From positions 133,668 through 197,667 of the forward strand of contig JAUQQN010000001.1 in the NCBI GenBank assembly GCA_030549845.1: DNA of 64,000 bases, in the 5' to 3' direction. Position numbers and translations under genes: made by a program. Position 1 is the stretch's first letter; each line of letters opens with the position of its first letter. The notes under the pieces were generated by a model, which worked only from the letters and a program-made list of their open reading frames with translations, had not been told where the DNA came from and ran no database searches. Origin of the DNA: Patescibacteria group bacterium. Its GTDB lineage: Bacteria; Patescibacteriota; Minisyncoccia; UBA6257; HR35. This document shows, in pieces, positions 15,855-61,088 of this stretch.

Positions 15855-15866
15855 TTGTGGATAACT
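15855..15866 (-). promoter_or_regulatory. AGTTATCCACAA element (contains a perfect DnaA-box consensus TTATCCACA); copy 1 of 4
   Basis: Exact 12-mer shared with 29959..29970 and 35906..35917; lies upstream of a secreted-protein gene in the same relative orientation. Confidence 0.45.
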
Positions 15867-16473
15867 ATTTTTTAGTATATTCTACGATTTTATCAATTAA
15901 TCCATATTCTTTTGCTTCTTCTGCTGATAAATAAAAATCTCTATCAGTATCTTTTTCTATTTTCTCTAATGGTTGTCCTGTATGTTTTGCTAAAATTTGA
16001 TTTATTTTTGATTTTATTTTTAATATTTGCCTTGCTGTAATTTCAATCTCAACTGCTTGACCTGCTGCTTCTCCCATTACTTGATGAAGTAAGATTTCTG
16101 TATTAGGAAGAGCCATTCTTTTTCCTTTTGTCCCTGCTGCAAGTAAAATTGCAGCCGCAGATGCTACCATTCCAAGCCCAATAGTTACAACATCAGGTTT
16201 TACAAATTGCATAGTATCATAAATAGCTAATGCTGAAGTTACAACTCCTCCTGGAGAATTTATATAAAAATAAATATCTTTTTCTGGATCTTCATGTTCT
16301 AAAAATAAAAATTGAGCAATAATCAAATTTGCAACCTGATCTGTAATTGGAGTCCCTAGAATTACTATTCTATCTTTTAACAATCTTGAATAAATATCAT
16401 AAGCCCTTTCTCCATGTTGAGTTTTTTCTATTACATAAGGAATAAGTTGCATGTGTTTTTCAATCTCTTTCAT
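15865..16473 (-). CDS. clpP: ATP-dependent Clp protease proteolytic subunit
   Basis: [21 protein letters not shown], catalytic Ser in [11 protein letters not shown], His in LLHQVMG; 202 aa. Confidence 0.9.
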
Positions 16474-16483
16474 TTTAAATTTA

Positions 16484-17056
16484 TTATAATATTTTTCTAT
16501 TTAATATCCAAATCATAAAAACAAAAAGAATTATTGTCCTATAATGGATACCTAAAGGAGAGAGATATAAAACCCAAAAAATTTCTAAAGAAAAAATTGT
16601 TTTTAATAATGAATTAAGTAGGTTTTCTTTAAACCCAAGAAACATTATCAAAAATACAATCAAAGGGAACAAAATTGAGATAAGAAATAGTGTAAAAAAC
16701 TGAAAAAGATTGTTAGAAATAAAAACAAAAAGGAGTAGATTTAAAACCCAACCTAATTTGCTATTTTTTATAAAAAGAAAATAATAAAAAGGCCAAATTA
16801 AAGTAAGATAAATTTGATTTAAATCTAAAATATAACTAAGTAAAATAAGGAAAGATGGGGTCAAAATTGAAGATAAGAAAATTTCTGGTCCCCTAAGATA
16901 ATAAAAATTGAAAAAAATTAAAAAAATAAAAAGTACAAAAGAAAAATATGGGTTTTTTAAACTTAAATAAAAAAATAATGTAGTAGACGCTAAGGCTAAA
17001 ATTAAAAGTAGATTATTAAATATCGAGCTCTTTAGCCTGCTTAGCATAAGTTTCAA
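16484..17056 (-). CDS. hypothetical polytopic membrane protein
   Basis: 190 aa, ~6 hydrophobic helices, no motif. Confidence 0.4.
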
Positions 17057-18917
17057 TAAATTTTCTTCGTGGTTCGACCTCTGTGCCCATTAAAATTGTA
17101 AATAATTCATCAGCTTTTTCTGCATCTTTTATAGTTACTTTTCTTAGAATCCTTGTTTCTGGGTTCATGGTAGTAGCCCACAATTCTTCGGGATTCATTT
17201 CACCTAATCCTTTATATCTCTGCACATCAATATTGATATTTCTCCTTTTTGTTTGAATTTCCTTTATTAATTTATCTTTTTCTTCATCTGAATAAGCATA
17301 ATAAATTTCTTTGCCTGCTTGAATCTTGTAAAGAGGAGGATGAGCTATGTAAATATATCCTTTTTCTACTAAAGGCTTAAAGTACCTATAAAACAATGTT
17401 AAAAGTAAAGTTCTTATGTGATGGCCATCAGAATCAGCATCAGTAGCTATTATTATTTTTGAATACCTTAAATTATCAATATTAAAATCTTTTCCTATCC
17501 CTGTTCCTAAAGTTATTATTAAATCTTTGATTTCTTTCGATTTTAAAATTTTATTTAAGCTTGCCTTTTCAACATTTAAAATTTTACCCCTAAGAGGAAA
17601 TACTGCTTGAAAAATTCTATCTCTTCCCTGTTTTGCACTTCCCCCAGCACTATCTCCTTCTACAATAAAGAGCTCTCTTTTGGAAAAATCTTTTGTAGAA
17701 CAATCAGCTAATTTGCTTGCTAAAATTAATGAACTTGAAATTCTTTTTTTCAAAACTGCTTCTTTTGCACTCTTTTCTGCTTCTCTTACTTCTAAATTAA
17801 CGGAAAGTCTATTTAAAATATTTTTTGCTTCATCTGGATTTTTGCCAAAATACTCTTTCAAAAAATTATATGTTTTAGATTCTACAAAACTTTTAACCTC
17901 AGGATTTCCTAATTTACTTTTTGTTTGACCCTCAAATTGCGGTTCAGGAATTTTCAAAGAAATTATTGAATATAATCCTCCTTTTATATCTTCAGTGATT
18001 AGATTTTTATTGTTTTTAAGAATATTTAATTCTTTACCAACTTCATTAAAAACCCTAACTAAAGCATTTCTAAAACCTACAAGATGAGTACCGCCTTCTG
18101 GATTTAATATATTGTTTGTAAATGCTAATTCTTTTGTTTCTTGGTTTTCTATGTAATTAAAGCAAAATTCAAATTCTTTATCTTCTTCGTTAATCTTTCC
18201 ATATATATGATGAAAATTAATTAAGTTTTTATTTTTGGTTAAGTGATTTAAAAAACTTATAATTCCTCCTTCGAAATAAAAGCTATAACAAAAATCATCT
18301 CTTTCATCATAAAAATTTATCCTTAATTTTGGAGAAAGGTATCCTTGATGCCTTAAATAATCTAAAATTAGATCTCTATCAAAATTAATATCTTCAAAAA
18401 TTTTATTATCTGGCTCAAATATTATAGTAGTTCCTGTTTTGTTTGATGGTTTAACTTTCTTAACTGGATATTTTGGTACTCCTCTTTCATATTCCTGTAC
18501 CCATTCGTATCCATCTCTATAAACTATAGCTTTTAGATATTTTGATAAAGCGTTCACAACAGAAAGACCTACCCCATGTAAGCCTCCAGAGACTTTATAT
18601 ATTTTTTGAGAAAATTTACCACCTGCATGAAGATATGTAAGAACGGTCTCTAATGCAGATTTTTTTGTTTTTGGATGAATATCAACAGGAATACCTCTAC
18701 CATCGTCAGAAATTTGAACTCTATTATTTTTCAAAATTTTAACCTCGATATTTTTAGCATAACCTGCTAAGAATTCATCTATGCTATTATTTATTATTTC
18801 CCAGACTAAATGATGTAATCCTTCTTTCCCAGTTCCACCAATATACATTCCTGGTCTTTTTCTTACTGCTTCTATCCCCTCTAAAACTTGTATATCTTCT
18901 GCTTTATAAGTTGACAT
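17016..18917 (-). CDS. gyrB: DNA gyrase subunit B (type IIA topoisomerase ATPase subunit; ParE not excluded)
   Basis: GHKL ATPase N-terminus (VRKRPGMYIGGTG, LHHLVWEIINNSIDE), Toprim EGDSAGGSAKQGRDR, C-terminal GyrB tail; 633 aa. Confidence 0.85.
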   Translation of the reverse strand: MSTYKAEDIQVLEGIEAVRKRPGMYIGGTGKEGLHHLVWEIINNSIDEFLAGYAKNIEVKILKNNRVQISDDGRGIPVDIHPKTKKSALETVLTYLHAGGKFSQKIYKVSGGLHGVGLSVVNALSKYLKAIVYRDGYEWVQEYERGVPKYPVKKVKPSNKTGTTIIFEPDNKIFEDINFDRDLILDYLRHQGYLSPKLRINFYDERDDFCYSFYFEGGIISFLNHLTKNKNLINFHHIYGKINEEDKEFEFCFNYIENQETKELAFTNNILNPEGGTHLVGFRNALVRVFNEVGKELNILKNNKNLITEDIKGGLYSIISLKIPEPQFEGQTKSKLGNPEVKSFVESKTYNFLKEYFGKNPDEAKNILNRLSVNLEVREAEKSAKEAVLKKRISSSLILASKLADCSTKDFSKRELFIVEGDSAGGSAKQGRDRIFQAVFPLRGKILNVEKASLNKILKSKEIKDLIITLGTGIGKDFNIDNLRYSKIIIATDADSDGHHIRTLLLTLFYRYFKPLVEKGYIYIAHPPLYKIQAGKEIYYAYSDEEKDKLIKEIQTKRRNINIDVQRYKGLGEMNPEELWATTMNPETRILRKVTIKDAEKADELFTILMGTEVEPRRKFIETYAKQAKELDI

Positions 18918-18919
18918 TT

Positions 18920-19258
18920 TTAAATTTTCGTTGTTAATCTTATATCAAAAATTCTATCTATACTTATTAAACTCGGCCCAACAGAAATTAAAATTATAAA
19001 ATAAGCTATTAAAAGAAGTTTGACCAAATCTATTCTTTTTTCTTTAATTATTAGTACTAAATTTGCTAAAATCCAAAATAGAGAAATCAAAGAAGTCAAA
19101 AAGCCTGTTGCTATCATAAAACTTGATATAAAATAAATTAAGCTTTTCAATTTATTTTCTTTAAATTTATTTAAACCAAAATTAAAATATACATATCCCA
19201 CAATTAAACGAGATAAAAAAATTCCTAGAAAATCAAAAGCCCACAAAAATTGTATCAT
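18920..19258 (-). CDS. small membrane protein, DoxX-like
   Basis: 112 aa, LSRLIVGYVYFNFGLNKF resembles the DoxX LRIxLGxxFxxxGxxK motif. Confidence 0.4.
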   Translation of the reverse strand: MIQFLWAFDFLGIFLSRLIVGYVYFNFGLNKFKENKLKSLIYFISSFMIATGFLTSLISLFWILANLVLIIKEKRIDLVKLLLIAYFIILISVGPSLISIDRIFDIRLTTKI

Positions 19259-20291
19259 GGAGAAAGCTTACTTTAACGTAATAAATCAAATTTTCAAGCC
19301 TTACCAAGCTTCTATACTTAAATTATATCAAAAATTTAGAAGTTTTGAAAAAGTTTACGACTATTTAAAGAGAAATAACAAATTAAAAGAAATAGATATA
19401 GAAAAAGAATATGAAAAAGTAAAAAAATTAGACATAGAAGTGGTTACATTAAGCGAAAATGGGTATCCGGAGGTTTTAAAAAATATTGATAGTCCTCCGC
19501 TTGGTTTTTATGCATTAGGAAATTTAAAAATTTTAAAAGAGGAAACCTTATTTGTAGCAATTGTTGGAACAAGAAAGGCAAGCAATTATGGAAAGGAAAC
19601 ATCTTTTAGATTTTCTAAGGGTTTATCAAATTTAGGAGTCATTATTGTAAGTGGATTAGCTTATGGAATAGATGAGTATGCTCATAAAGGCGCAGTTGAT
19701 GTAGGGTCTAAAACAATTGCAGTATTAGGAGAAGGAATTGATTTGGTATTAAATTCTCCAAAAAGAAAATTAGTTGAGAAAATTTTGGAAAATGACGGTT
19801 TAATAATATCTGAATATTCTTTATCCACACCTGCTATGCCTTATCATTTTCCTTTAAGAAATAGAATAATTGCTGGATTGAGTAATGCAGTATTGGTAAT
19901 TGAAGCACCAATAGATTCTGGAGCACTTATTACAGCAAATTATGCTTTAAAGTATGGGAGGGAGATTTTTGTTGTCCCTGGTGAAATAACTAATAAAAAT
20001 TTTGAAGGAAGCCATAATTTAATTAAGCAAGGAGCAAAACTTGTAACCTCTATTGAAGATATCTTAGTTGAGTTTGGAATTGATTATAAAGAAAAAAACA
20101 AAGTTAAAAAATTGAAGTTATCACCAAGAGAAGAAATTATTATTGAATCTTTACAAGTTAAAGAAAAGACAATAGAAGAATTAAGTAAAGAAACAAATTT
20201 CCCTATTCAAGATTTATTGGTCTTATTAACTCATATGGAAATAAAAGGCTTAATAAAAAACAAAGAGGGTAAGTTTTATTTGAATTTGTAA
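19257..20291 (+). CDS. dprA: DNA-processing protein A (natural transformation, ssDNA protection)
   Basis: Rossmann-like DprA core (VGTRKAS..., GLAYGIDEYAHKGA, VVPGEI), C-terminal winged-helix-like tail; 344 aa. Confidence 0.85.
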   Translation: MEKAYFNVINQIFKPYQASILKLYQKFRSFEKVYDYLKRNNKLKEIDIEKEYEKVKKLDIEVVTLSENGYPEVLKNIDSPPLGFYALGNLKILKEETLFVAIVGTRKASNYGKETSFRFSKGLSNLGVIIVSGLAYGIDEYAHKGAVDVGSKTIAVLGEGIDLVLNSPKRKLVEKILENDGLIISEYSLSTPAMPYHFPLRNRIIAGLSNAVLVIEAPIDSGALITANYALKYGREIFVVPGEITNKNFEGSHNLIKQGAKLVTSIEDILVEFGIDYKEKNKVKKLKLSPREEIIIESLQVKEKTIEELSKETNFPIQDLLVLLTHMEIKGLIKNKEGKFYLNL

Positions 20292-20313
20292 TTGCAAAAA
20301 TTTGGAGTATAAT
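20286..20313 (+). promoter_or_regulatory. sigma-70-type promoter TTGTAA-16-TATAAT driving the downstream small RNA
   Basis: TTGTAA at 20286..20291, 16-nt spacer, TATAAT at 20308..20313, immediately after the dprA stop codon. Confidence 0.45.
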
Positions 20314-20320
20314 TTATTTA

Positions 20321-20471
20321 AGAACACTAGGAAGGGCTGCCGAGTTCGGAGACCTCCGGGGAGGTGACGGGCCCCCGGAGAAAGGCAGCCCTTCCTATGT
20401 TATATATAGAGGGAGGCATGGGATTTTATATCTTATTTTAATTCTTCCCCTGCCTCCCTTTTTATTTTTTC
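20321..20471 (+). ncRNA. candidate small structured RNA, identity unresolved (SRP/4.5S-like is one possibility)
   Basis: Sharply GC-rich region: a 12-bp perfect outer stem (20330..20341 / 20384..20395) encloses an 8-bp inner stem (CTCCGGGG/CCCCGGAG). A second hairpin AGGGAGGCATGGG...CCCCTGCCTCCCT (20410..20459) followed by a T-tract (20460..20471) acts as terminator. Weak similarity of CCGGAGAAAGGCAGCC to the SRP domain IV consensus CCGGAAGGAAGCAGCC. Confidence 0.35.
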
Positions 20472-20667
20472 TTAATTCTATTTCTTATTATGGTAGCCAA
20501 AATTCAAAACCTCACAAGCTCGCCTTGAATCATTAAATAACAAATCAAGAAGACCTAAAAGATTAGGACAATCCAAAATCAATCCTCTAAAACAACCTCA
20601 ATCTGAATTTTCGTAATCTGATTACGAAAACTACGAAAACTAATAATTTTTCTTTTAGGTCCATCTA

Positions 20668-20695
20668 TTGACAAAAAAATAAAATTTGTTAAAAT
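20668..20695 (+). promoter_or_regulatory. near-consensus sigma-70 promoter TTGACA-16-TAAAAT for the lipoprotein gene
   Basis: TTGACA 20668..20673, 16-nt spacer, TAAAAT 20690..20695; strong SD AGGAGGTG at 20713..20720 lies 7 nt before the ATG. Confidence 0.55.
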
Positions 20696-20727
20696 TAGAG
20701 CGGAAATCTAGAAGGAGGTGTTGGGTA

Positions 20728-21054
20728 ATGAGACGTTTATTTTTATTTTTAATTTTCGCAACGGCGTTTGTCGGTGGCTGCGGAGGGGGACATAAGCCCC
20801 CCTCCGTTGAGACGTTGCCTCCGGCTCCAACCACAAAGGTGGAGTCGGGGCCTATTGTGGGCTGGTGGTGGGTAACCATCACCAGCCATACGACCCCTTC
20901 CCGGATAGAAGTTATCCGGGAAGGGGTAACATTGTTTAATTTTTTAGAGACCCGGGAGGTCAAAATCGACCTCCCGGAGGGTAATTACCTCATCCGGGTG
21001 ATATACCCGGATGGGGGCTCCTGGGAGGGAGAGCTGACTCTCCCTCCCAAATAG
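20728..21054 (+). CDS. small GC-rich lipoprotein (108 aa; lipobox FVGGC)
   Basis: ATG at 20728 after AGGAGGTG; signal peptide MRRLFLFLIFATAFVGG|C; mature part is beta-strand-like. The annotated ORF start at 20686 is upstream of the RBS-supported ATG. Mature-region GC is far above the genome background. Confidence 0.6.
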   Translation: MRRLFLFLIFATAFVGGCGGGHKPPSVETLPPAPTTKVESGPIVGWWWVTITSHTTPSRIEVIREGVTLFNFLETREVKIDLPEGNYLIRVIYPDGGSWEGELTLPPK

Positions 21055-21066
21055 TTTTTTCCACAG

Positions 21067-21092
21067 CCCCACCCTTTCGGGTGGGGTTTTTT
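21067..21092 (+). terminator. rho-independent terminator (CCCCACCC-TTTC-GGGTGGGG + T6)
   Basis: Perfect 8-bp GC stem, 4-nt loop, TTTTTT tract, 12 nt after the lipoprotein stop codon. Confidence 0.75.
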
Positions 21093-21113
21093 ATTCCACT
21101 TTTATTTGACTTA

Positions 21114-21143
21114 AAACAAATAAATCCGTACGGAACTATTTGT
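21114..21143. repeat. palindromic element with TTCCGTACGGAA core, copy 1
   Basis: AAACAAATAAATCCGTACGGAACTATTTGT; near-identical to 27942..27975; imperfect hairpin; 39 nt downstream of the ileS stop codon. Confidence 0.5.
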
Positions 21144-21181
21144 ATAAGTAATTTTTATTTTGTTAGATTTTGAGAAAGGAA

Positions 21182-24688: not shown

Positions 24689-25169
24689 TTTTATAATTCT
24701 TTATAGCTTTCTCTATTAATTTTTCTGCTTCTTCTTTGTTTAACCAATCTTTTATCTTTACCCACTTACCTGGTTCTAATGTTTTGTAATTTTCAAAAAA
24801 GTGTTTAATTTGATTTTTATAATTTTCTGGAATTTCACTTATATCATTATACATCCCCCAAAAAGGATCTATTTTTTCTTTTGGAACTGCTATTACTTTT
24901 TCATCTTTTCCAGCCTCGTCTTCCATTTCTAAAACTCCTATTGGTTTTACTCTAATCAAACTACCTGGCAATATACTTTCATAAGATAATATTAAAACAT
25001 CTACTGGGTCTCCATCATCTGCTAAAGTTTCTTCTATAAATCCATAATTGAAAGGATAATACATTGCTGTATATAGAAATCTATCAACTCTTATTCTATT
25101 TTTTTCTTTATCTAACTCATATTTAACATTGCTCCCCTTTGAAATTTCAATTAAAACATCTATTTCCAT
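24672..25169 (-). CDS. ppa: inorganic pyrophosphatase (family I)
   Basis: Family I PPase fold and Asp-rich metal motifs (DDGDPVDVLIL); 165 aa. Confidence 0.85.
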   Translation of the reverse strand: MEIDVLIEISKGSNVKYELDKEKNRIRVDRFLYTAMYYPFNYGFIEETLADDGDPVDVLILSYESILPGSLIRVKPIGVLEMEDEAGKDEKVIAVPKEKIDPFWGMYNDISEIPENYKNQIKHFFENYKTLEPGKWVKIKDWLNKEEAEKLIEKAIKNYKNAKSK

Positions 25170-25171
25170 TT

Positions 25172-26332: not shown

Positions 26333-26372
26333 TTTTTAAACAACAGGTTATATAATTTTAATATTATAAATC

Positions 26373-27840: not shown

Positions 27841-27941
27841 CGTTAATAAATTATATTTAATTTTTCAAAATTTTCAAATACCTTATTGCAATAGGATTTT
27901 TTAGTAATTCATAAAAACCCAAATATTCTTTTTAACTTCAT

Positions 27942-27975
27942 AAAACAAATAGTTCCGTACGGAATTATTTGTTTT
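27942..27975. repeat. palindromic element with TTCCGTACGGAA core, copy 2 (near-perfect 17-bp stem)
   Basis: AAAACAAATAGTTCCGTACGGAATTATTTGTTTT; overlaps the last 2 nt of tsaD; probable bidirectional terminator. Confidence 0.5.
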
Positions 27976-29011: not shown

Positions 29012-29026
29012 ACAATCTATTATACA

Positions 29027-29917
29027 CTATTCACGAATCTGTCCAGGTTCACATCGAAGACCTTGGCCAGAGCATACAGAAGTACTAGTATTCACCCATC
29101 TGTTTCGAGTTTCATCATAATATTGGCAAAAACCGAGAAAGCATCTAAGTCTAAGAGGAGGACTTACCGTGATAGTAGAAGTATTTGAAACTTGTTGAGT
29201 ATTTGATTTTAAATATAATGAATAAGTGCCTGTAGGAACTCCATTTAAACTTAAAGTTCTTGTTACAAAAATATTATTAATATTATTGATAAAGTCATCA
29301 GATCGAATTGAAGGAAAGAGTGTAAAACCAGTTGAGTATGGAGAAATGCTAGGATCCGCCGGAACTGGTAAATTTGAAGGACAATAAGCCTTATTGCTAT
29401 AAATTGTATAAGTTATAGTAGAAGTAGATTGTGTAGTAGTTGATTCAGGTTCAAGTTTATAATACCAGCCTCTATTACTTGCTGGTACTACAAAAAAGCT
29501 TGCTGAAGCAGATTGACTGTCTTTTTTATAAGTAATAGTTACTGTTGAATATTGTGATCCTGGATTTGTAAATACTCCTTCTATTATGCAATCCGTACTA
29601 GAGACATATCCTCCTATTTGATCACATTTTCCAGAAGTTGAATATTGATTTATAGTTAAACTTAGATTTCCACCGCTCCCACCCACTAATTTTATCCTAA
29701 AAAGAGTTCCGCTTGCTACAGTAGATTTAATATTTGTTTTATAAATATCATCTGAGATTGCATTTTCTATTTCAATCCCTTGATCATTAGGAGAAGAAAG
29801 TGCATAAATTTCTATACCAATGCCATTTGCAGCTTTAGCAAAATAAAAATTTCTATAAATTAAGAAAGTAGTTATCAAAAGTAAAATTCCTAAAATGATA
29901 TAAATTTTACTTTTCAT
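29027..29917 (-). CDS. secreted Ser/Thr-rich hypothetical protein with C-terminal Cys cluster
   Basis: Signal peptide MKSKIYIILGILLLITTFLIYRNFYFAKA; AGTTATCCACAA motif 42 nt upstream. Confidence 0.45.
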   Translation of the reverse strand: MKSKIYIILGILLLITTFLIYRNFYFAKAANGIGIEIYALSSPNDQGIEIENAISDDIYKTNIKSTVASGTLFRIKLVGGSGGNLSLTINQYSTSGKCDQIGGYVSSTDCIIEGVFTNPGSQYSTVTITYKKDSQSASASFFVVPASNRGWYYKLEPESTTTQSTSTITYTIYSNKAYCPSNLPVPADPSISPYSTGFTLFPSIRSDDFINNINNIFVTRTLSLNGVPTGTYSLYLKSNTQQVSNTSTITVSPPLRLRCFLGFCQYYDETRNRWVNTSTSVCSGQGLRCEPGQIRE

Positions 29918-29958
29918 CTTTTCAATTATAATTTAAAATTTTTAATGGTCAAATAAGG

Positions 29959-29970
29959 TTGTGGATAACT
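29959..29970 (-). promoter_or_regulatory. AGTTATCCACAA element, copy 2 of 4
   Basis: Exact 12-mer; in the divergent intergenic region between the 29027..29917 secreted-protein gene and the Mur-ligase-like gene. Confidence 0.45.
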
Positions 29971-29993
29971 TTTGTTAAAATTTTAAATAATAA

Positions 29994-32337: not shown

Positions 32338-32601
32338 TTATGGAAACTTAGGAACTTCTTTTACCTCTAAAAATGAAAGTATGATAACAGGAATAGTATA
32401 AGAAGTTATGAGGATAATTAGGCCTAATAAAATCCAAGGTAAAAATTTCTTTGCCTCATCTAGCTTTTTGTGATATATTGCTAAAACCCCTAAATAAATA
32501 AAAGAAGCAGATGAACCTAAAATTATCAAAACTTGCATTATTTTTATGATCCTTAAAAGAATTATTCTTATCTCATCCATATTATTTAAAAGAAGGTACA
32601 A
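32338..32601 (-). CDS. small two-helix membrane protein, pilin-like hairpin module family (VirB2/TrbC-like), paralog 6
   Basis: 87 aa, two hydrophobic helices separated by a short charged loop (HKKLDEAKK); pattern shared with five neighbouring genes. Confidence 0.45.
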   Translation of the reverse strand: MYLLLNNMDEIRIILLRIIKIMQVLIILGSSASFIYLGVLAIYHKKLDEAKKFLPWILLGLIILITSYTIPVIILSFLEVKEVPKFP

Positions 32602-32839
32602 ATGTTTGTATTGTTTTTAAAATTATTTCTTTATTTAGAAATACTAAACTTATTAAAATTAATCCCAATATTATATAAATTAATGCTTTTTTAACTTCAC
32701 CAAAGTTTTTCGATGAAAAATATGTCTTTATACCTAAATAAATTATAAAAAAACTAGAAATAAGTAGAGCGAACTTTAATAAAAAATTGGTTAAATTTTC
32801 CAAAATAGAGAGAATTTTATCCAAAAATGGAAAATACAT
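32582..32839 (-). CDS. small two-helix membrane protein, pilin-like hairpin module family, paralog 5
   Basis: 85 aa; FALLISSFFIIYLGIKTYFSSKNFGEVKKALIYIILGLILISLVF; same module. Confidence 0.45.
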   Translation of the reverse strand: MYFPFLDKILSILENLTNFLLKFALLISSFFIIYLGIKTYFSSKNFGEVKKALIYIILGLILISLVFLNKEIILKTIQTFVPSFK

Positions 32840-33123
32840 TACTTAAAGAAAGAAATTAGGATAGCTTGAATAGAAAAGGATGCGATTATTAACACTAATC
32901 CTACAATAATTAGTGGAACTTCTTCTTTAAATCCTTTCCCTGGATTTACCATATATTTAAAGCCAGAATACATTAAAATACCTATACCACTTACCATTCC
33001 TATCCAATAAAAAATATTAATTACTCCAATGAGTTTACAAATAAAATAATTTATGCCTTCTTGCTGAGCACAACCTATTTCCCCTCTAAACCTAATTGCT
33101 TGGGCAAAAACTAAGCTTATCAT
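32839..33123 (-). CDS. small two-helix membrane protein, pilin-like hairpin module family, paralog 4
   Basis: 94 aa; ...GCAQQEG...IFYWIGMVSGIGILMYSGFKYMVNPGKGFKEEVPLIIVGLVLIIASFSIQAIL. Confidence 0.45.
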   Translation of the reverse strand: MISLVFAQAIRFRGEIGCAQQEGINYFICKLIGVINIFYWIGMVSGIGILMYSGFKYMVNPGKGFKEEVPLIIVGLVLIIASFSIQAILISFFK

Positions 33124-34772
33124 AAACCTAATATTTGCTTAATGATATTCCAACCACTACCTCCAGGTGTATAAATTTTCCCTGTTTCTATATCGAAGAC
33201 TTGACTAAACGGCTTATCTGGAAATTCTGAATTTGTAATTTCAACTTCACATTGGCCTTTATAATCATAAAATTGAATATATAAAAATCCTAATGTATTA
33301 CCTGGAGGAGAAATATATTTAGGAACTCTATATAGAGATTTTCCCTTTTCATAACTCAAGGTTATTTGGAAATCTCTGTTAAACAGGTATAAAGAAGTTG
33401 CCTTTGTTTTATCAAAATTAAAACTTGAAACACTTGTTCCCCTCATAACCCCATATAATGTACAATTCCCATTTTTTTTAGGAGTAGGTTGAACTTCATA
33501 TTCTATATACATTGAAAAAGGAGGTTGATATATATTCCTTTGCAAAACTGTGATTCCTAATAACTGCTCTAAAGCATCTTTCAAGTTATCGGGCATTTCT
33601 ACCCTTATATATTGAGAAGCATAAATTATAAGTTTGTCTCCTTTTATTGTTAATTTTGGTAGCTCCTCAACAACAACTTCAACTTTTGGTCGATATTGAA
33701 TATCAAGATAGGTAATATTCAAATTACAGTTATTTGATTGGAATGCAACTCTTACAAAATCACCTGGCTCAATATGGTTCCCTAGCTCAGCTTCTATATA
33801 TTGGGAACCAAAAATATTAGGTTCTATTTTTGAAAACAAATTTTTACCTTTTGTTTTATTGTAAAAAGTAAGCGTTAATTCACATGTATCCTTAGAAGAA
33901 ACAAAAACAAAAAATCTTCCATTTTCATCTATTTTTGCAGTATTTGTATCTATTATTAGAGTACCAGAAGCAGTGCCACTAGGTAAAATAGATTGAGTAG
34001 TATCTGGAATGGGTTGAGTAATATCTGGAATAGGTTGAGCAGTGTCTGTAGTAATTGGACCTAGTTCAGAAGGTGGTTGTAATGCTAAACCACCTGTTAA
34101 CCATCTTTCTACTCCAATAACAATCGTAAATGAAACAATTCCTACTACAATACCTATTATCCCCCATTGGACTCTTTTATGAACATCACTAACTTGGCTA
34201 GGTTTTGTAATATATAAAATGCCAGCCCACATTAAAAACAAAACCCCTAAAGCTAGAGATAAGGTATATAATATCCTTAAGCCTTTATCAAAAAGAAACA
34301 ACAAACATTGACCAATTCCTCTTTCGCATTCACGAATAGTAGGAAATCCTCTTAGATATTCTGATGGAGCTATATATAATTTTTCCAGCTGACCATTTTC
34401 TATTTGTACATTCAATACTTTAAATCCTCGGTATTGTTGTAAACTAGGAGGTGGATCTATTAAAATTAATTCTGCTGCCTCTATTATTAAGTTACTCCAA
34501 TTTCCGTAAGTCTCTCTAACTGCATCATTGACATTTATGTTAGGATCTGTACTTTCAATGCTATTACCTCTAACCTCGAATGTTCCTTCACCATATCTAT
34601 TATTCAAAAGCTCAGCCATTTTTTCTCTTATCAAACGCCTTAAACCTTCATCTACATTTATTCCCTGCACTGTCTTTATGCCCCATTGAAAAGGATTAAA
34701 ATATTGAGTAACTTGAGCAAAAGTGATATTACTGAATATTAGCAAAATAACTAAAAGTAAAATTTTTTTCAT
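33120..34772 (-). CDS. secreted 550-aa protein with embedded pilin-like hairpin module (aa ~165-225) and QPIPD(I/T)TQ tandem repeat
   Basis: Signal peptide MKKILLLVILLIFSNITFA; internal segment GIGQCLLFLFDKGLRILYTLSLALGVLFLMWAGILYITKPSQVSDVHKRVQWGIIGIVVGIVSFTIVIG matches the paralog module; 21-nt tandem DNA repeat at 33999..34040. Confidence 0.45.
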   Translation of the reverse strand: MKKILLLVILLIFSNITFAQVTQYFNPFQWGIKTVQGINVDEGLRRLIREKMAELLNNRYGEGTFEVRGNSIESTDPNINVNDAVRETYGNWSNLIIEAAELILIDPPPSLQQYRGFKVLNVQIENGQLEKLYIAPSEYLRGFPTIRECERGIGQCLLFLFDKGLRILYTLSLALGVLFLMWAGILYITKPSQVSDVHKRVQWGIIGIVVGIVSFTIVIGVERWLTGGLALQPPSELGPITTDTAQPIPDITQPIPDTTQSILPSGTASGTLIIDTNTAKIDENGRFFVFVSSKDTCELTLTFYNKTKGKNLFSKIEPNIFGSQYIEAELGNHIEPGDFVRVAFQSNNCNLNITYLDIQYRPKVEVVVEELPKLTIKGDKLIIYASQYIRVEMPDNLKDALEQLLGITVLQRNIYQPPFSMYIEYEVQPTPKKNGNCTLYGVMRGTSVSSFNFDKTKATSLYLFNRDFQITLSYEKGKSLYRVPKYISPPGNTLGFLYIQFYDYKGQCEVEITNSEFPDKPFSQVFDIETGKIYTPGGSGWNIIKQILGL

Positions 34773-34773
34773 T

Positions 34774-35427
34774 TTAATGAGTTAAACTAAATTCAATTGC
34801 TTTAACAATTGAAAAAGCAGCAACTGTAAAAATTGCTCCGATTATTGCCCAAGTAATATAATTCCAACCTTCTCTATCGCCTGGTTTTAAATATAACTTC
34901 ATTCCTCCATAAATTATAAAACCTATTGCTGAAAGCATAGATACAGTATACAGAACTGTTAAAATTTTAGTAATAAACCAAAGAAAGCATCTTCCTAATA
35001 AGCCAGGTGGGGTAGGTTTTCCTCCTAAGATATCAAAAATATTTATTCCTGTGCAATTAATTCTCGGAGGTTGAAAACTTAATTGTTGAGCATAAGCTAT
35101 ATTAAATATAAAATCTATTCTCCAATTAGAGACCGTATATTCAATAAGTTTAACTAATCCCCAAGAAATTAAAGCTAAAGCTAAACCTAAAGAAGCCCAA
35201 ATTAATCTATTCTTTACATCTTGTTGTGCTTTTTGGGCTTGAACTATAAGAATTATTCCTGCCCACATAATCATAATTACAGCCAATGCACCAGAAAGCC
35301 ATGTCAAAATTTTTAATGCAACATAAAAAACTAATAAAGCACAAGAAGTTAAATCTTGGCAAATAACTGGAACAGGAAAAATTCTATTGCTAAATATCCC
35401 AAAATCTGGATTAAATGGATAAGGCAT
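34774..35427 (-). CDS. membrane protein with two tandem copies of the pilin-like hairpin module
   Basis: 217 aa; module a: ...TSCALLVFYVALKILTWLSGALAVIMIMWAGIILIVQAQKAQQDVKNRLIWASLGLALALISWGLVKLIEY; module b: ...GRCFLWFITKILTVLYTVSMLSAIGFIIYGGMKLYL...WNYITWAIIGAIFTVAAFSIVKAIEF. Confidence 0.45.
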   Translation of the reverse strand: MPYPFNPDFGIFSNRIFPVPVICQDLTSCALLVFYVALKILTWLSGALAVIMIMWAGIILIVQAQKAQQDVKNRLIWASLGLALALISWGLVKLIEYTVSNWRIDFIFNIAYAQQLSFQPPRINCTGINIFDILGGKPTPPGLLGRCFLWFITKILTVLYTVSMLSAIGFIIYGGMKLYLKPGDREGWNYITWAIIGAIFTVAAFSIVKAIEFSLTH

Positions 35428-35447
35428 TCAATTTATTTTTATTATTT

Positions 35448-35828
35448 TTAAAATCCAGGCTGTCCTGTAACTACAAGATTTTCTACAAACTTAACTACAG
35501 CCCAAGCAAGTAATGCTATAGCCAAACCAGCTGCTCCGTATATCAACCTATTTTTACCTTCATCAATTTTTGCTTGGATTATAACTTGTATTCCTCCCCA
35601 AATTATGTATATAACTGCAAAAGCACCTGCTGCCCACATTAGAATTCTTAAAACCCATGTAAAGACTTGTAAAAGAACTTCACCTAGAGTTCTTCCTTGT
35701 AAAAAACCAGATTCTGGTGGTAGTTCGCGTATAGGCCATTCTCCTCCTTGCCCATAAACTAAGCCAAGGTTTCCTAAAAATAAGATTAATAGTAAAATTG
35801 CACTTAATCTAAGGGTTTTTTTACTCAT
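35448..35828 (-). CDS. signal-peptide-bearing pilin-like protein (VirB2/TrbC-like), first gene of the cluster
   Basis: 126 aa; signal MSKKTLRLSAILLLILFLGNLGLVYG|QGG, then LQVFTWVLRILMWAAGAFAVIYIIWGGIQVIIQAKIDEGKNRLIYGAAGLAIALLAWAVVKFVENL; AGTTATCCACAA motif 78 nt upstream. Confidence 0.5.
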   Translation of the reverse strand: MSKKTLRLSAILLLILFLGNLGLVYGQGGEWPIRELPPESGFLQGRTLGEVLLQVFTWVLRILMWAAGAFAVIYIIWGGIQVIIQAKIDEGKNRLIYGAAGLAIALLAWAVVKFVENLVVTGQPGF

Positions 35829-35905
35829 TTTATTAATTTAAAATTAATGCGACCTAGTTTTAATTAAAAAAATTTTAAACCATTCAATATCTTCTTTTTC
35901 AAAAA

Positions 35906-35917
35906 TTGTGGATAACT
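35906..35917 (-). promoter_or_regulatory. AGTTATCCACAA element, copy 3 of 4
   Basis: Exact 12-mer in the divergent region between the pilin-like cluster and comM. Confidence 0.45.
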
Positions 35918-40898: not shown

Positions 40899-40932
40899 CT
40901 AAAAGGTCATGATTAATTTCAAAAGTTAATCT

Positions 40933-44868: not shown

Positions 44869-44893
44869 TTGATTAATTGTTTTTAATTCGACC

Positions 44894-47556: not shown

Positions 47557-47581
47557 ATTTTTTTAAAAGTTAAATTTCGAC

Positions 47582-48619
47582 CTAAAGTAAAGTTTTTATC
47601 TTTTCCTTTTCTTCGGTAACTACTGTTTTTAATTTTTCTTCTTTTTTAATTAAATCCTTGAAATTAAACAAAAATCTATTAAAAGCCCTGTAAGCCTGTT
47701 CTAAGTTAGTAGTACTATTTGAAAGCTGAGAACGTGCTTTTTCTAAATAACTAGTTATCTCATTTATGTCTTTTTCTAATTGGGCTAAGCTTTTAAGGAT
47801 ATCTTGAACATTTCTTGCAAATTCTTGTTTTTTTAATATCAAACTTAATTGTGAACACAATATTTCAAATGTTTTGGGAGAAGAAATTATAACAGATTTT
47901 TCTTTTGCATAATCCCAAATTTCATCATATTCTTTATTACTCAATATTTCATAAAACAATCCTTCTGCAGGTAGAAACATAATGGCATATTCTATTGTTT
48001 CTCTTATAGGAATAATATATTTACTTGAAATATTATCAATGTGGGTTTTAATCGCTTTTATTAATTCTTTTCTCAATTTTTCTTTTTCAGCTTCAGAATC
48101 TGTTTCTAACAACTTTACAAAACTACTATAAGGGAATTTAGAATCAATAGGAATAATAGTATCATTAATTTTTAAAATAAAATCTACTACAAAGCTTCCT
48201 AATCTATATTGTTTCTCATAAACATTTTTAGGAAAGTCTTTTAAAATTTCTTCTAAAGCTTTCTCTCCAAAAATCCCTCTTGATTTTGTCCCTGCTAAGA
48301 CTTCTTTTAAATTCCTAAGATCTAAAGAATGATTTTCTAACACTCTTGCAACTTCTTCTATTTTTGCTGTTTTTTCCGTTGTTTTTTCTAGCTTTTCGTG
48401 AATTTCTTTTTGAATATTTTCCAATTTAGATTCTATCTCCTTTCTTAATTCTTGGGAGATAGTAACTAATTTTTCTAAGGCTAGTTGTTCTTCTTCTTTC
48501 TCTTTATACTCTTTTTCTCTAAACCTTATTTCTAACTCTTTTTTTATAAAAAAATACAAAATACCCAAAGCAGAGCTTATTATTATTAGATTTATAAAAA
48601 CAACCAATAAAATTTCCAT
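47582..48619 (-). CDS. rmuC: DNA recombination protein RmuC-like
   Basis: N-terminal TM plus long coiled coil plus C-terminal RmuC-like domain; 345 aa. Confidence 0.5.
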   Translation of the reverse strand: MEILLVVFINLIIISSALGILYFFIKKELEIRFREKEYKEKEEEQLALEKLVTISQELRKEIESKLENIQKEIHEKLEKTTEKTAKIEEVARVLENHSLDLRNLKEVLAGTKSRGIFGEKALEEILKDFPKNVYEKQYRLGSFVVDFILKINDTIIPIDSKFPYSSFVKLLETDSEAEKEKLRKELIKAIKTHIDNISSKYIIPIRETIEYAIMFLPAEGLFYEILSNKEYDEIWDYAKEKSVIISSPKTFEILCSQLSLILKKQEFARNVQDILKSLAQLEKDINEITSYLEKARSQLSNSTTNLEQAYRAFNRFLFNFKDLIKKEEKLKTVVTEEKEKIKTLL

Positions 48620-49236: not shown

Positions 49237-49275
49237 GTTTTTCTAATTAATAATATAATAAAATAATAAAGAAAA

Positions 49276-51006: not shown

Positions 51007-51051
51007 ATAAATCTATATTGATTTTATTTTTTAATTTATTAAAATAATTAG

Positions 51052-52206: not shown

Positions 52207-52208
52207 AA

Positions 52209-53381: not shown

Positions 53382-53384
53382 TTT

Positions 53385-57424: not shown

Positions 57425-59127
57425 AGTTAAAAAAGTTTTTTTTAATTTTTTTTATTTTAATACTTCCGATTTTTTGCAAAGCTGAAAAAGTTTTTGAGTA
57501 TTTTTCTCATTCTCCGCGAACTACTAATAAGCTAGATTTAAATTTAGTAGAAGAAATTAAGCAAGAAATAAAAATATTTGATGATAATCTAAGTAAAATT
57601 TATCTTTGGATAGATAACCCGGGTACAGCTAATGAAGTGAATATTCAACTTTTTGAAGAAGACCATTTATTATTCAGTAAGACCATCAATATTCCCCAGG
57701 TAAAAGGAGGTTATTTTGGTTATAAGTTTGGAATAGATTTAGGAAAGAATTTAAAAATAGAAAGCGGAAAAAATTATCATTTATCAATAAAAAATTTAAC
57801 CAAAGATGAAATGTATATCTACTATACAAGCAAGATAGAGATTTTACAAGGAGAAGAAAAAGAAGGCATTTTACCAATCTCCTTAGGTAAATTTTTGATA
57901 AATGGAAAAGAGTATGCTTATTCTTTGAAAATAGCGCTTGCTGAATCTTTGGAACAAGATGTGCCTAAATTATTTAATCCACAAATAGAAATTGAAAGTC
58001 CTTATAAAGTTTATCTTTTATTCAATTCAAACGAACCGATAAAATATAAAGTTATCTATTGGGATGTGAATAGAAATGAAACTTATTTAATCCCTTCAAA
58101 TCCTTATTTAGAAAATTGTTTTATAGAAACGAAAAAATGTAAAATAAGTATTTATACGAATCATAACACTTATTATAAATTCCAAATTTCTATAATAGAT
58201 TATTGGGGCAATTTCAAAACTTATGAAGGGGAATTTGTAACCCCCTTAGATCCTACTATTTCTACTTCAACAATTTCTACTTCAACAATAAAAATTAATG
58301 ATACATTACCCCCTCAAATTTCTAATTTTCAAATAAAAGAAATAACTTCCAATAATATAATAGTCTCTTTTGAAACAAATGAATTTGCACTTAGTTCTCT
58401 TAAAATTTTTTATAAAGATACAGGTGTTATAGTGATGGAAATAAGAAATAGTATGTTTAATTTATATCATGAAATAAGCGCATTGAATTTACTTTTCCCT
58501 AACTTAGAATACGAAGGAGTAGTTTATGTAGAAGACATATTTAAAAATAAAAATGAATATAAATTTAGCTTCAAAACTAAAGAAGGTAAAACTTCTCAAT
58601 CTTTAGATAAATTTTTATCTCAACCTAAAATTTTAGAAATTAATGTAATAAATGAAGGAATTGAATCTAGCTTAAAAACCCCAGATATTGAAATTAATTA
58701 CGACCAAAATTTAAATAAAATGAATATCAAAACAGATTCCAATAATTTAAAAATTAATTTCATTAAAAGACCAGAGGTTTCTATTTTTAGTTATTCTATC
58801 AAAGAAGGAAGTTATGATTTGGATTTAAATATTTTCTCTCCTGGGGTTTATAATTACCTAGCTTATCAAGAGCTCCGGCCTAACATAAAACAAATTCTAA
58901 AATCTGGTGAAATTGAAATAAAAAGCAAAGAAATTAAGGAAATTTCTTCGGAAAAAATAGAAACAAAAAATAATACAGAAATTAAAATAAAAGAGGGTTC
59001 TCCAAAAATAATTCAACCTTTGCCTGCTTCAGAATCTGTTTCATCTCATAAAAAAATTATTTCAATTATCGGAATAATTGTGATTTTAAGTTTGTTATTA
59101 ATCTTATTTTTGATAAAAAGAAAATGA
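57421..59127 (+). CDS. cell-surface protein with signal peptide and C-terminal TM anchor, ISTST tandem repeat
   Basis: MKLKKFFLIFFILILPIFCKA signal; C-terminal IISIIGIIVILSLLLILFLIKRK; 15-nt tandem DNA repeat near 58258..58290. Confidence 0.4.
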   Translation: MKLKKFFLIFFILILPIFCKAEKVFEYFSHSPRTTNKLDLNLVEEIKQEIKIFDDNLSKIYLWIDNPGTANEVNIQLFEEDHLLFSKTINIPQVKGGYFGYKFGIDLGKNLKIESGKNYHLSIKNLTKDEMYIYYTSKIEILQGEEKEGILPISLGKFLINGKEYAYSLKIALAESLEQDVPKLFNPQIEIESPYKVYLLFNSNEPIKYKVIYWDVNRNETYLIPSNPYLENCFIETKKCKISIYTNHNTYYKFQISIIDYWGNFKTYEGEFVTPLDPTISTSTISTSTIKINDTLPPQISNFQIKEITSNNIIVSFETNEFALSSLKIFYKDTGVIVMEIRNSMFNLYHEISALNLLFPNLEYEGVVYVEDIFKNKNEYKFSFKTKEGKTSQSLDKFLSQPKILEINVINEGIESSLKTPDIEINYDQNLNKMNIKTDSNNLKINFIKRPEVSIFSYSIKEGSYDLDLNIFSPGVYNYLAYQELRPNIKQILKSGEIEIKSKEIKEISSEKIETKNNTEIKIKEGSPKIIQPLPASESVSSHKKIISIIGIIVILSLLLILFLIKRK

Positions 59128-59690
59128 GGGCTTTTACTTTGATGGAAACATTAATAGCCATTTTTATTATTTCTGCTTTAATTGGATTAATAATTCTTTT
59201 TGTATTAAACTTGGTAAATTTTAATGTATTTTTTGTTTTAAACATAGGTGGCACAAGAGAAATTGATATTACCCTAAATAATATGATCAAGGAGCTGCGT
59301 AGTATGAATCAATCTAATACAGGAGGGTATCCTATTGAAAGCGCAGATGAAACTAGTATAATATTCTACACCGATATAGATGGAGATGGGGTTATGGAAA
59401 GACTGAGGTATTTTTTAGAAAATAATCAAGTAAAAAGAGGTATAACGAGATTTGAAAATGGAACATATGATTCAAATAAAGAAAAGATTTGGCTTATGAT
59501 TAATAATGTAAATAAATTTAAGATAACCTATTATGACGCTAATTATACGGGAACAGAAGTTCCCTTAACTTTTCCTGTAGATATTTCAAAAATTAGGACA
59601 ATTCGGATTGATGTTTCTTTAAAGTTTTTAAACAAACCAGAAATTAATTATTATATAATAGCAACACCAAGAAATTTAAGAGGAAAATGA
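59124..59690 (+). CDS. pseudopilin / minor type IV pilin
   Basis: MRA|FTLMETLIAIFIISALIGL prepilin-type N-terminus; 188 aa. Confidence 0.6.
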   Translation: MRAFTLMETLIAIFIISALIGLIILFVLNLVNFNVFFVLNIGGTREIDITLNNMIKELRSMNQSNTGGYPIESADETSIIFYTDIDGDGVMERLRYFLENNQVKRGITRFENGTYDSNKEKIWLMINNVNKFKITYYDANYTGTEVPLTFPVDISKIRTIRIDVSLKFLNKPEINYYIIATPRNLRGK

Positions 59691-61078
59691 AAATAAAATC
59701 ACAAATTTCTTTATATGTTATTATATATAGCGGAATAGCAATTTTTCTTTTATCTGGTTTTTTAATTTGGATACAAGCTTTTATTTTAAATACGCAAAGG
59801 GAAATTATAAAAAAGAAATTATTTGCTGTTGCTGAAAGTGGAATAGAATATTATAGATGGCATTTGGCCCATGCCCCTCAAGATTTTACGGATGGCACAA
59901 ATAGACCAGGTCCTTATGAACATATTTTTTATGACAGATTCGGAAATTCAATAGGTAAATTCATACTAGATATTACACCACCTCCGGTTGGTTCAACAAT
60001 AGTTAAAATAAAATCATCTGGTATTTTAAATGAATTTCCTAATGTTGAAAAATCTATTTTAGTTACACTCGGTATACCTTCTTTTGCAAAATATTCAGTG
60101 GTAGTAAATGATAATATTAGGTTCGGTGAGGGAACAGAGGTATATGGAGAAATTCATTCAAATCAAGGAATAAGATTTGATGGGGTTGCTTATAATTTGG
60201 TCTCTAGTGCTCTGACAACATATGATGATCCCGATCACACCGGTCCCCAAGAATGGGCTGTTCATACCCATAAAAATCCAGTAGATCCTCTACCACCAAC
60301 TCCATATCCACAAAGACCTGATGTTTTTAAAGCAGGAAGATTAGTAGGAGTTCCAAGGGTTGACTTTAATGGAATTACTTATGATTTGGCTAAAATAAAA
60401 TTAGAAGCCCAAACAAATGGAGTTTATATAGGACCTTCTAATAGTTATGGGTATGAAATTATCTTAAAGCCAGATGGTACTTTTGATTTATACAAGGTTA
60501 CAAGAGTATATTCTGATTGCGATAATCCTTCTTGGAGCATAAGAAATAAAACTTTTATTAGAAATTATCAAATCCCTCAAAATGGAACAATTTTCATTGA
60601 AGATCATGTATGGGTGAGTGGTCAAATAAAAAATAAAAGAGTTTTAATAGGAGCAGGAAAGTTTCCAGATATAGAATCGGAACGAAAAAATATAATAATA
60701 AATCAAAACTTAACTTATTCAAACTATAATGGAGATGATGTGATAGGTCTTATTGCTCAAAATAATGTTTTAGTAGGCTTAAAGAGCTTGGATAATTTAA
60801 AAATAGATGCAGCTTTAATTGCTCAAAATGGGTTTGTAGGTCGTTTATATTATTCTTCTTTATGTGGTTCAGAATACCTTAGAAACTCCATAACTATATA
60901 TGGTATGATAGGAACGAATAAAAGATATGGCTTTGCTTGGGTTTGTGGTAACATCCATTGTTCTGGATACAAATACAGAACATTAATATATGATGCAAAT
61001 TTATTGTATGGACCACCTCCTTATTTTCCATTATCTACTTCCTTTTATGAAGTTTTAAAGTGGTTAGAGTTAAAATAG
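59687..61078 (+). CDS. membrane-anchored pilus-associated hypothetical protein
   Basis: N-terminal TM, 463 aa, embedded between pseudopilin and pilin genes; no FTxxE motif. Confidence 0.35.
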   Translation: MKIKSQISLYVIIYSGIAIFLLSGFLIWIQAFILNTQREIIKKKLFAVAESGIEYYRWHLAHAPQDFTDGTNRPGPYEHIFYDRFGNSIGKFILDITPPPVGSTIVKIKSSGILNEFPNVEKSILVTLGIPSFAKYSVVVNDNIRFGEGTEVYGEIHSNQGIRFDGVAYNLVSSALTTYDDPDHTGPQEWAVHTHKNPVDPLPPTPYPQRPDVFKAGRLVGVPRVDFNGITYDLAKIKLEAQTNGVYIGPSNSYGYEIILKPDGTFDLYKVTRVYSDCDNPSWSIRNKTFIRNYQIPQNGTIFIEDHVWVSGQIKNKRVLIGAGKFPDIESERKNIIINQNLTYSNYNGDDVIGLIAQNNVLVGLKSLDNLKIDAALIAQNGFVGRLYYSSLCGSEYLRNSITIYGMIGTNKRYGFAWVCGNIHCSGYKYRTLIYDANLLYGPPPYFPLSTSFYEVLKWLELK

Positions 61079-61088
61079 TTATCCACTA
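61077..61088 (+). promoter_or_regulatory. AGTTATCCACTA element, copy 4 of 4 (one mismatch to the other three)
   Basis: Lies 89 nt upstream of the pilA ATG, in the same relative orientation as copies 1-3. Confidence 0.4.

Follow-up and report, generated by a model that had tools for sequence, protein, structure and literature searches.

A DnaA-box motif at a fixed promoter position upstream of pilin and exported-protein genes in a Patescibacteria genome

The four motif copies and the genes that follow them

We analyzed a 64-kb stretch of contig JAUQQN010000001.1 from a Patescibacteria group bacterium (hereafter the window) for the distribution and context of a 12-mer, AGTTATCCAC(A/T)A, that contains a match to the DnaA box and precedes four genes for exported or pilus proteins. 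The window has a G+C content of 28% and is ~95% coding. Its genes include those for ClpP, GyrB, DprA, NusA, IleS, TsaD, ComM, Pgk and SecF, together with a type IV pilus operon encoding PilB, PilC, minor pilins and the major pilin. Pilin homologs are named 'bacterium HR35' and 'Candidatus Parcubacteria bacterium KatS3mg094/095', and at related loci there is a gene whose product has the domain composition of a reverse gyrase; we therefore take the organism to belong to the candidate phyla radiation and to live in hot springs. An Rfam scan of the window returned two tRNAs only, and no RNA family was detected at the motif-bearing regions of distant loci. Positions of the motif copies, the predicted promoters, the downstream genes and the orthologous promoters are collected in Table 1.

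A motif scan of both strands found four copies of the 12-mer in the window and no further match. None of 100 dinucleotide-preserving shuffles of the window gave any match to the 12-mer, in agreement with the view of a preliminary description of this DNA that three identical 12-mers were improbable by chance. Variants with two mismatches are present at chance frequency (12 observed versus 7.75 expected in the window), and given this level the motif is sharply defined. The copies lie 6-25 kb apart, each in a spacer of 71-107 nt, and all four fall within the 2,984 nt (4.7% of the window) left non-coding by a simple open reading frame (ORF) map. Each of them is oriented toward the start of the next gene, which encodes an exported protein in all four cases; with ~7 exported products among the ~19 promoter-proximal genes of the window, a hypergeometric calculation by hand gives a probability of ~0.009. 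The preliminary description had named copies within coding DNA or before unrelated genes as the observation to look for against a shared role; within the window, 4/4 copies are intergenic and no such copy was found.

The 9-mer within the motif, TTATCCACA, is the DnaA-box optimum, the high-affinity consensus being TTWTNCACA (quoted in PMC12371093). Three of the window sites match this consensus at 9/9 positions, and the 9-mer of the fourth, TTATCCACT, departs from it at position 9, so that the motif does hold the canonical DnaA box first described for it, with this one deviation. The bare 9-mer is additionally found inside genes at 19821 and 22602, and TTWTNCACA is not over-represented in the window as a whole (12 matches versus 8.3 expected). 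Given the intragenic 9-mers and a total near expectation, what is non-random is the placement at promoters rather than the number of boxes. No box was found at the window promoters of rpsT, tRNA-Gly, nusA, proS, htrA and others.

The products of the first two target genes, of 429 and 296 amino acids (aa), have no Pfam or NCBIfam match, and their homologs were found only within this lineage; the predicted structure of the 429-aa protein (mean predicted local distance difference test score, pLDDT, 56.8) was too poor for use. PF18895 (T4SS_pilin, for type IV secretion system pilin) matches the products of 35448-35828 and 34774-35427, with a weak match for 33120-34772. Judged from these matches, the product of 35448-35828 is a conjugative-type (VirB2/TrbC-like) pilin and not a type IV pilin. 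The product of 61177-61626 has a borderline Pfam score (21.1 bits versus a cut-off of 21.2), and its homologs are annotated as prepilins. With hydrophobic N-termini encoded by genes 1 and 2, the T4SS_pilin match and the prepilin, the earlier assignment of all four sites to secreted or pilus genes stands.

Table 1. Motif copies, predicted promoter elements and target genes in the window, and orthologous promoters in related loci (identities are to the window proteins; -10 starts are given in motif positions).
Feature	Location	Strand	Description
Site m1	15855..15866	-	AGTTATCCACAA; core DnaA-box 9-mer 15856-15864; AG within clpP stop TAG (15865-15867)
Site m2	29959..29970	-	AGTTATCCACAA; 76-nt divergent spacer, 296-aa gene / Mur-ligase gene
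Site m3	35906..35917	-	AGTTATCCACAA; 107-nt divergent spacer, T4SS-type pilin gene / comM
Site m4	61077..61088	+	AGTTATCCACTA; AG within stop TAG (61076-61078) of last gene of minor-pilin operon
Predicted sigma-70-type promoter, 429-aa gene	15821..15848	-	TTGACA (15843-15848), 16 nt, TAAAAT (15821-15826); 11/12 consensus
Predicted promoter, 296-aa gene	29925..29952	-	TTGACC (29947-29952), 16 nt, TATAAT (29925-29930); 11/12 consensus
-10-like TAAAAT, pilin-cluster promoter	35872..35877	-	-35 hexamer not recognizable
-10 hexamer TATAAT, pilA promoter	61118..61123	+	-35 hexamer not recognizable
Target gene 1	14504..15793	-	429 aa; hydrophobic N-terminus (transmembrane or signal helix); beta-rich
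Target gene 2	29027..29917	-	296 aa; Ser/Thr-rich, exported; hydrophobic N-terminus
Target 3, cluster of small membrane proteins	32338..35828	-	starts with T4SS-type pilin gene 35448-35828
Target gene 4	61177..61626	+	major prepilin (pilA-like); N-terminal methylation motif
429-aa gene promoter, ortholog	L179 (71% protein identity)		TTATCCACAATTTTATTTGACA; -10 start 42
296-aa gene promoter, ortholog	L184 (43% protein identity)		TTATCCACAA; -10 start 40
T4SS-type pilin promoter, ortholog	L093 (ComM 65%)		TTATCCACA; -10 start 43
T4SS-type pilin promoter, ortholog	L094 (ComM 67%)		TTATTCACA; -10 start 40
T4SS-type pilin promoter, ortholog	L095 (ComM 65%)		TTATTCACA; -10 start 41
T4SS-type pilin promoter, ortholog	L092 (ComM 70%)		no box; TTGATT-17-TATAAT instead
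pilA promoter, ortholog	L171 (82% protein identity)		TAATCCACT; -10 start 41
pilA promoter, ortholog	L174 (78% protein identity)		TTATCCACA; -10 start 41
pilA promoter, ortholog	L176 (59% protein identity)		TTTTCCACA; -10 start 43
pilA promoter, ortholog	L182, HR35 (56% protein identity)		TTTTTCACA; -10 start 44
pilA promoter, ortholog	L183, KatS3mg094 (56% protein identity)		TTATCCACA; -10 start 41

Promoter position and conservation of the box

Each of the four sites stands at a fixed distance from a predicted -10 hexamer. With offsets counted from the A of the 12-mer (motif position 1), the hexamer (TATAAT or TAAAAT) begins at position 41 at m1, m2 and m3 and one position later, at 42, at m4 before pilA; at m1 and m2 the -35 hexamer occupies positions 19-24, 6 nt past the 12-mer. 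The distance from box to ATG varies in the window (62 nt at m1, 42 nt at m2, 78 nt at m3 and 89 nt at m4), values that, like the four site coordinates, had been given before and are correct as coordinate differences. Across the window and its orthologs, the box-to-ATG distance ranges over 42-132 nt, whereas the box-to-(-10) offset stays at 40-44 in 14/14 boxed promoters, the kind of fixed spacing between box and core promoter that is a trait of nrdAB-type DnaA-controlled promoters. In the 296-aa gene, only 7 nt separate the -10 hexamer from the ATG. The transcript of this gene is therefore probably leaderless, which would place the box between about -51 and -43, just upstream of where a -35 hexamer lies.

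The window boxes also lie 0-3 nt from the stop codon of the neighboring gene or from the comM start codon, at the upstream edge of the intergenic DNA, and the same holds in most relatives (L093-L095, L171, L174, L176, L179, L182 and L183). Since it abuts the neighboring gene in such compact genomes, the box would be the outermost functional element of the promoter. Read on the other strand, the boxes in the divergent spacers of m2 and m3 precede a TAAAAT by 7-8 nt, beyond which the Mur-ligase gene (m2) or comM (m3) starts. A protein on the box could thus hinder the Mur-ligase and comM promoters too, a possibility to which we give little weight because the comM ATG abuts the box in L093-L095.

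To follow the box into related, Parcubacteria-like genomes from hot springs, orthologous loci were gathered with ComM as anchor (metagenome contigs) and with homologs of the major pilin and of the 429-aa and 296-aa proteins as anchors. A box was found at the equivalent offset (40-44 to the -10 hexamer) in 10/11 orthologous promoters, whose proteins are 43-82% identical, while shuffled upstream regions of the orthologs gave a 1-9% chance each of a box anywhere. Between box and -10 hexamer, the orthologs differ freely in sequence. The preliminary description had asked for conservation at orthologous genes, and the box is kept in these ten with its spacing to the -10 hexamer; in near-identical strains from several public runs, the motif is identical. 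The organism is present in SRR277300xx, SRR216194xx, JGI 3300022544 and JGI 3300009585. A scan of species-representative genomes anchored on ClpP, which is too conserved for the purpose, gave a nearest match of 77% identity that had neither synteny nor the motif. No box was found at operon-internal minor-pilin genes or, within the loci retrieved, at pilin genes from unrelated bacteria; on this comparison of sequences the association of box and pilin is confined to this clade.

Column statistics for the 14 boxed promoters show no change at T1, T4, C6, A7 and C8 of the 9-mer and variation at positions 3 (A/T), 5 (C/T) and 9 (A/T) and once at position 2; most substitutions in orthologs thus fall where TTWTNCACA is degenerate or where a change is tolerated. 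The A directly after the box (motif position 12) is present in 12/14 promoters, and motif positions 15-16 carry T in 14/14 and 13/14, respectively. The conserved unit is TTATCCAC(A/T)A-NN-TT. Of the 12-mer first put forward as the unit, the core is thus real and the leading AG lies outside what is conserved: its letters belong to a stop codon at two sites and are AA or CA in relatives.

L171 (15483-15640), like L172 and L173, has a further box, a reversed TTATCCACA immediately next to the 5´ end of tRNA-Glu and 59 nt upstream of the gene for a 1922-aa fn3-repeat protein with a prepilin-type N-terminus. This box adjoins a pilin-like surface gene too, but its orientation is opposite to that of the window sites and it overlaps the -35 position.

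Boxes of the same sequence are found in distant members of the candidate phyla radiation. In L101 and L102, clusters of boxes lie right upstream of dnaA (dnaA confirmed by tblastn); L101, L102 and L105 carry double boxes like those of E. coli, TTTTGCACA-gag-TTATCCACA-g, in long origin-like spacers, and L143 has an origin-like cluster of three boxes. L143 and L102 each also have a box with promoter hexamers behind it: TTGACA or TTGACT lies 5 nt (L143) or 8 nt (L102) past the box and is separated by 17 nt from a -10 hexamer, an architecture like that in the window. Judged from these distant loci, TTATCCACA is clearly a working DnaA box in the candidate phyla radiation.

The same boxes raise the question of a replication origin in the window. 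A tblastn search with DnaA of the candidate phyla radiation found no dnaA in the window, and no second box (≤1 mismatch) was found within ~2.7 kb of 35906, each spacer holding one box. As no spacer has more than one box and dnaA is absent from the window, the four sites as a set are not an origin. The preliminary description had concluded as much, and for the set this holds; for the site at 35906 its conclusion is less certain. This site, m3, between the T4SS-type pilin cluster and comM, coincides at ~35.9 kb with the minimum of the cumulative GC skew and with the main switch of genes from the minus to the plus strand. In distant relatives, origin-like box clusters are found upstream of the comM-containing operon, and the region of m3 may be that of the replication origin. 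Candidate origins were recorded in four of these distant loci (L102 8120-8650, L101 7890-7940, L105 2740-2785 and L143 1-250); all four contain repeated palindromes, TGTATAC-AnTAGTC-TATACA, and lie 1.5-2.5 kb upstream of comM, not beside dnaA.

Several other elements were seen in the course of this analysis. Both pilin genes, as well as an 84-aa ORF, gap and folE2, have a conserved leader element, (A/T)(A/G)GGTC(G/A)-N-AWTWA, 17-30 nt ahead of the start codon ATG (35850-35854 on the minus strand, 61142-61146 on the plus strand, 44889-44893 and 47578-47582 on the minus strand and 40905-40916 on the plus strand). The element is present in all pilin orthologs (L092-L095, L171, L174, L176, L182 and L183), often followed by AT-only palindromes, and may be a lineage-specific signal for translation or stability. 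Most other window genes have no Shine-Dalgarno sequence, carry TATAAT 6-9 nt before the ATG and look leaderless.

A gene-poor region of ~0.9 kb (20292-21181) contains a TG-extended -10 hexamer followed by a GC-rich hairpin RNA (20330-20397), which has no Rfam match and may be a divergent signal recognition particle RNA. After this hairpin come a GC-rich ORF for a small lipoprotein-like product that ends at 21054, TTTTCCACA (21057-21065) and a terminator hairpin; in the equivalent region of L184, TAATCCACT is directly past a terminator (L184:9111). The sequence TATTCCACT-TTTATTTGACT (21092-21113) resembles the box plus -35 hexamer of m1 and m2 and has no downstream gene. A palindromic hairpin, AACAAATAAnTCCGTACGGAAnTATTTGT, occurs twice (21113-21141 and 27942-27975) at the ends of convergent or tandem genes and is probably a shared bidirectional terminator. 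In L143 (146-560) and L027 (11904-12130), AAAGTTATCCACAGG is followed by a promoter, a strong one in L143 (TTGACA-17-TATACT), and then by several hundred bases with no ORF or Rfam family, which end in a terminator-like hairpin in L143; the stretch may represent an RNA gene, so far undescribed, that is driven from a DnaA-box promoter.

Candidate readers of the motif

Given its position and conservation, we modestly favor the reading that the motif is the promoter-proximal operator of a small surface and pilus regulon and that DnaA is the protein that binds it. The regulon would comprise the major type IV pilin, the T4SS-type pilin cluster and the two lineage-specific exported proteins. DnaA, as a transcription factor, would occupy the single box at about -51 to -43 in one orientation and help to recruit RNA polymerase to these sigma-70-type promoters, and the output of pili and surface proteins would thereby be tied to the cellular level of DnaA or to the state of replication. 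Activation is favored over repression because the box abuts the -35 position and because, at both pilin promoters, a good -10 hexamer comes without a -35 hexamer. We infer from sequence which protein binds, whether its binding regulates transcription and in which direction. The preliminary description had proposed that either DnaA or a dedicated regulator co-regulates a surface or pilus regulon; the placement at promoters and the conservation in 10/11 orthologs support such a regulon, with DnaA as the probable binding protein.

Four points weigh against a role of DnaA at these promoters. The m1 and m2 promoters are already near consensus at -35 and should have little need of an activator, so that the signal on the direction of the effect is mixed. 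The pilin promoter of L092 has no box and carries a normal TTGATT-17-TATAAT in its stead. The window sites are single boxes, unlike the pairs that are occupied in E. coli. Finally, the DnaA regulons known so far revolve around replication, nucleotide supply and the cell cycle rather than pilins.

The main alternative is a dedicated regulator other than DnaA that would read TTATCCACAA-NN-TT and control the surface and pilus regulon, the likeness to a DnaA box being coincidental or the regulator competing with DnaA for the site; we regard this alternative as possible but doubtful. Single asymmetric boxes strictly phased to the -10 hexamer are typical of class I/II activator sites, the motif exceeds the 9-mer (A at position 12 in 12/14 promoters, TT at 15-16 in 14/14 and 13/14), and single boxes are rarely occupied by E. 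coli DnaA in vivo (PMC11317965). The window also encodes an orphan DNA-binding candidate with an RpoD-like sigma region 4 (4654-5736), to which no link from the motif was found. For an unrelated protein, it is unlikely that three paralogous sites would match the DnaA optimum at 9/9 positions and that orthologs would vary chiefly at positions 3, 5 and 9. Identical DnaA boxes are moreover in use in this radiation, so that DnaA would be expected to bind the window sites anyway. The region 4 candidate itself is a 360-aa protein encoded on the minus strand, with a sigma-70 region 4 helix-turn-helix at residues 19-70 and neither region 2 nor region 3; its gene adjoins a DUF8128 gene (3339-4676), and the protein might bind -35-like DNA.

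RNA polymerase itself might read the motif as a UP-like or extended upstream element of strong promoters, with no separate factor involved. The position corresponds to the proximal UP subsite (about -50 to -42), a T-tract follows, and among the targets are major pilins, whose expression is normally high. UP elements, however, are A/T tracts at -59 to -38 that have no G or C core, and the core of the motif is an invariant C-A-C; the presumably strong rpsT and tRNA-Gly promoters have no motif, and TCCACA at 29 nt before the -10 hexamer fits no spacing of the sigma-70 family. We therefore hold this explanation to be improbable. The same 29-nt spacing, impossible for the sigma-70 family, led us to reject an alternative sigma factor, and the invariant core is not matched by IHF, CtsR or MraZ-like motifs.

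Also quite improbable is that the boxes are a DnaA reservoir, comparable to the dispersed boxes and datA of E. coli, that buffers free DnaA with no role in transcription and is intergenic by tolerance. Dispersed single consensus boxes are what the titration model rests on, with enrichment near the origin (PMC12371093), and the GC-skew minimum and the switch in gene orientation at ~35.9 kb lie amid the four sites. Titration nevertheless leaves unexplained the constant 40-44 nt spacing, the single orientation, the restriction to exported-protein genes and the retention at the same promoter offset in orthologs, and coding DNA can hold boxes, as the two perfect intragenic ones show. A recombination or phase-variation site, or a mobile-element relic at variable surface genes, is highly implausible: the targets are surface proteins and many short-read contigs of near-identical strains stop ~30 nt after clpP, but these contig ends reflect a single-nucleotide T/C strain polymorphism and not a rearrangement, no inverted or direct partner copy lies near any site, the four copies in 64 kb are unpaired and form no inverted repeats around the promoters such as flank invertible ones, the flanks of the sites are unrelated, and the downstream genes are syntenic in relatives.

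Returning to DnaA as the reader of the motif, we raise more tentatively a specific form of this proposal, in which DnaA, in this clade of ultra-small and probably host-dependent Parcubacteria-like bacteria from hot springs, has been recruited to activate directly the genes for the major pilin, the T4SS-type pilin and abundant surface proteins through one consensus box at ~-47, at promoters without a -35 hexamer. If so, the machinery for attachment and DNA uptake would be expressed according to the readiness of the cell to replicate, and both the single-box, class-II-like mode of DnaA activation and the content of the regulon would be undescribed for any bacterium.

Bacteria of the candidate phyla radiation have tiny genomes and few regulators and are mostly uncultured, and their pilin and surface-protein genes are thought to mediate attachment to hosts and DNA uptake. 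We found no literature linking DnaA boxes with Patescibacteria, with promoters of the candidate phyla radiation or with pilin genes, and, searching for DnaA boxes or promoters in these bacteria, none on their transcription control. A sharply defined and conserved operator before pilin and surface-protein genes provides a concrete, testable candidate regulon. Should DnaA bind, a reduced genome would be re-using the replication initiator as a regulator of surface structures, and the sites would offer a natural example of DnaA acting through one box at a set place in the promoter; should another protein bind, the motif would still be a handle for finding that regulator.

Comparison with known DnaA sites and activator sites

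The nearest counterparts of the window sites are the DnaA-controlled promoters of E. coli. At nrdAB, DnaA on high-affinity boxes activates transcription by stabilizing the complex of RNA polymerase and DNA, and abundant DnaA-ATP is repressive (PMC8203912). Strongly bound DnaA sites in E. coli read 'gagTTATCCACAg/a', and the window 12-mer AGTTATCCACAA is identical to the 'gagTTATCCACAa' of purH, the purH site 'gAGTTATCCACAa' containing it exactly (Table 1 of PMC11317965). Like the window sites, the nrdAB, polA, purH, mioC and dnaA promoters have the same 9-mer in the promoter region, at purH with the same flanks. The E. coli promoters carry double boxes 2-3 bp apart and belong to a regulon of replication, nucleotide and RNA metabolism, whereas the window sites are single boxes phased to the -10 hexamer at pilin and exported-protein genes in a reduced-genome lineage. 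This difference bears on occupancy, as ChIP-seq in E. coli found DnaA almost only on pairs of boxes spaced by 2-3 bp, with 13/32 consensus single boxes bound (PMC11317965). No partner box lies 2-3 bp upstream of the window boxes; downstream, only the TT at positions 15-16 stands where a box at 3-bp spacing would begin, and the remainder of that would-be second 9-mer matches 3-5/9 consensus positions, the chance level in AT-rich DNA. L176 alone among the boxed promoters has two abutting boxes.

In Caulobacter crescentus, the targets of DnaA include developmental and envelope-related genes, DnaA boxes are more degenerate, and pilA is under the control of CtrA, not DnaA. DnaA doubles there as a cell-cycle transcription factor that acts through DnaA boxes in promoters (PMC3193534, PMC8203912). 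Titration boxes and datA resemble the window sites as dispersed, high-affinity TTWTNCACA sequences outside the origin (PMC12371093) and have no defined relation to promoters, in contrast to the fixed offset and orientation of the window boxes. Clusters at oriC are built from the same box, with several boxes together as opposed to one per window spacer; an origin also has an unwinding element and is usually close to dnaA or dnaN.

The position of the motif next to the -35 hexamer is shared with class I/II activator sites such as those of CRP and of lambda cI at PRM, which lie just upstream of or abut the -35 hexamer, compensate for a weak one and are usually dyad-symmetric and bound by dimers. 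Unlike these dyad-symmetric sites, the window motif is asymmetric and present in a single copy. In sum, the kind of element, a transcription-factor site that is probably a promoter DnaA box, is known, and what is new is the regulon, the lineage and the arrangement of a single box at a fixed offset.

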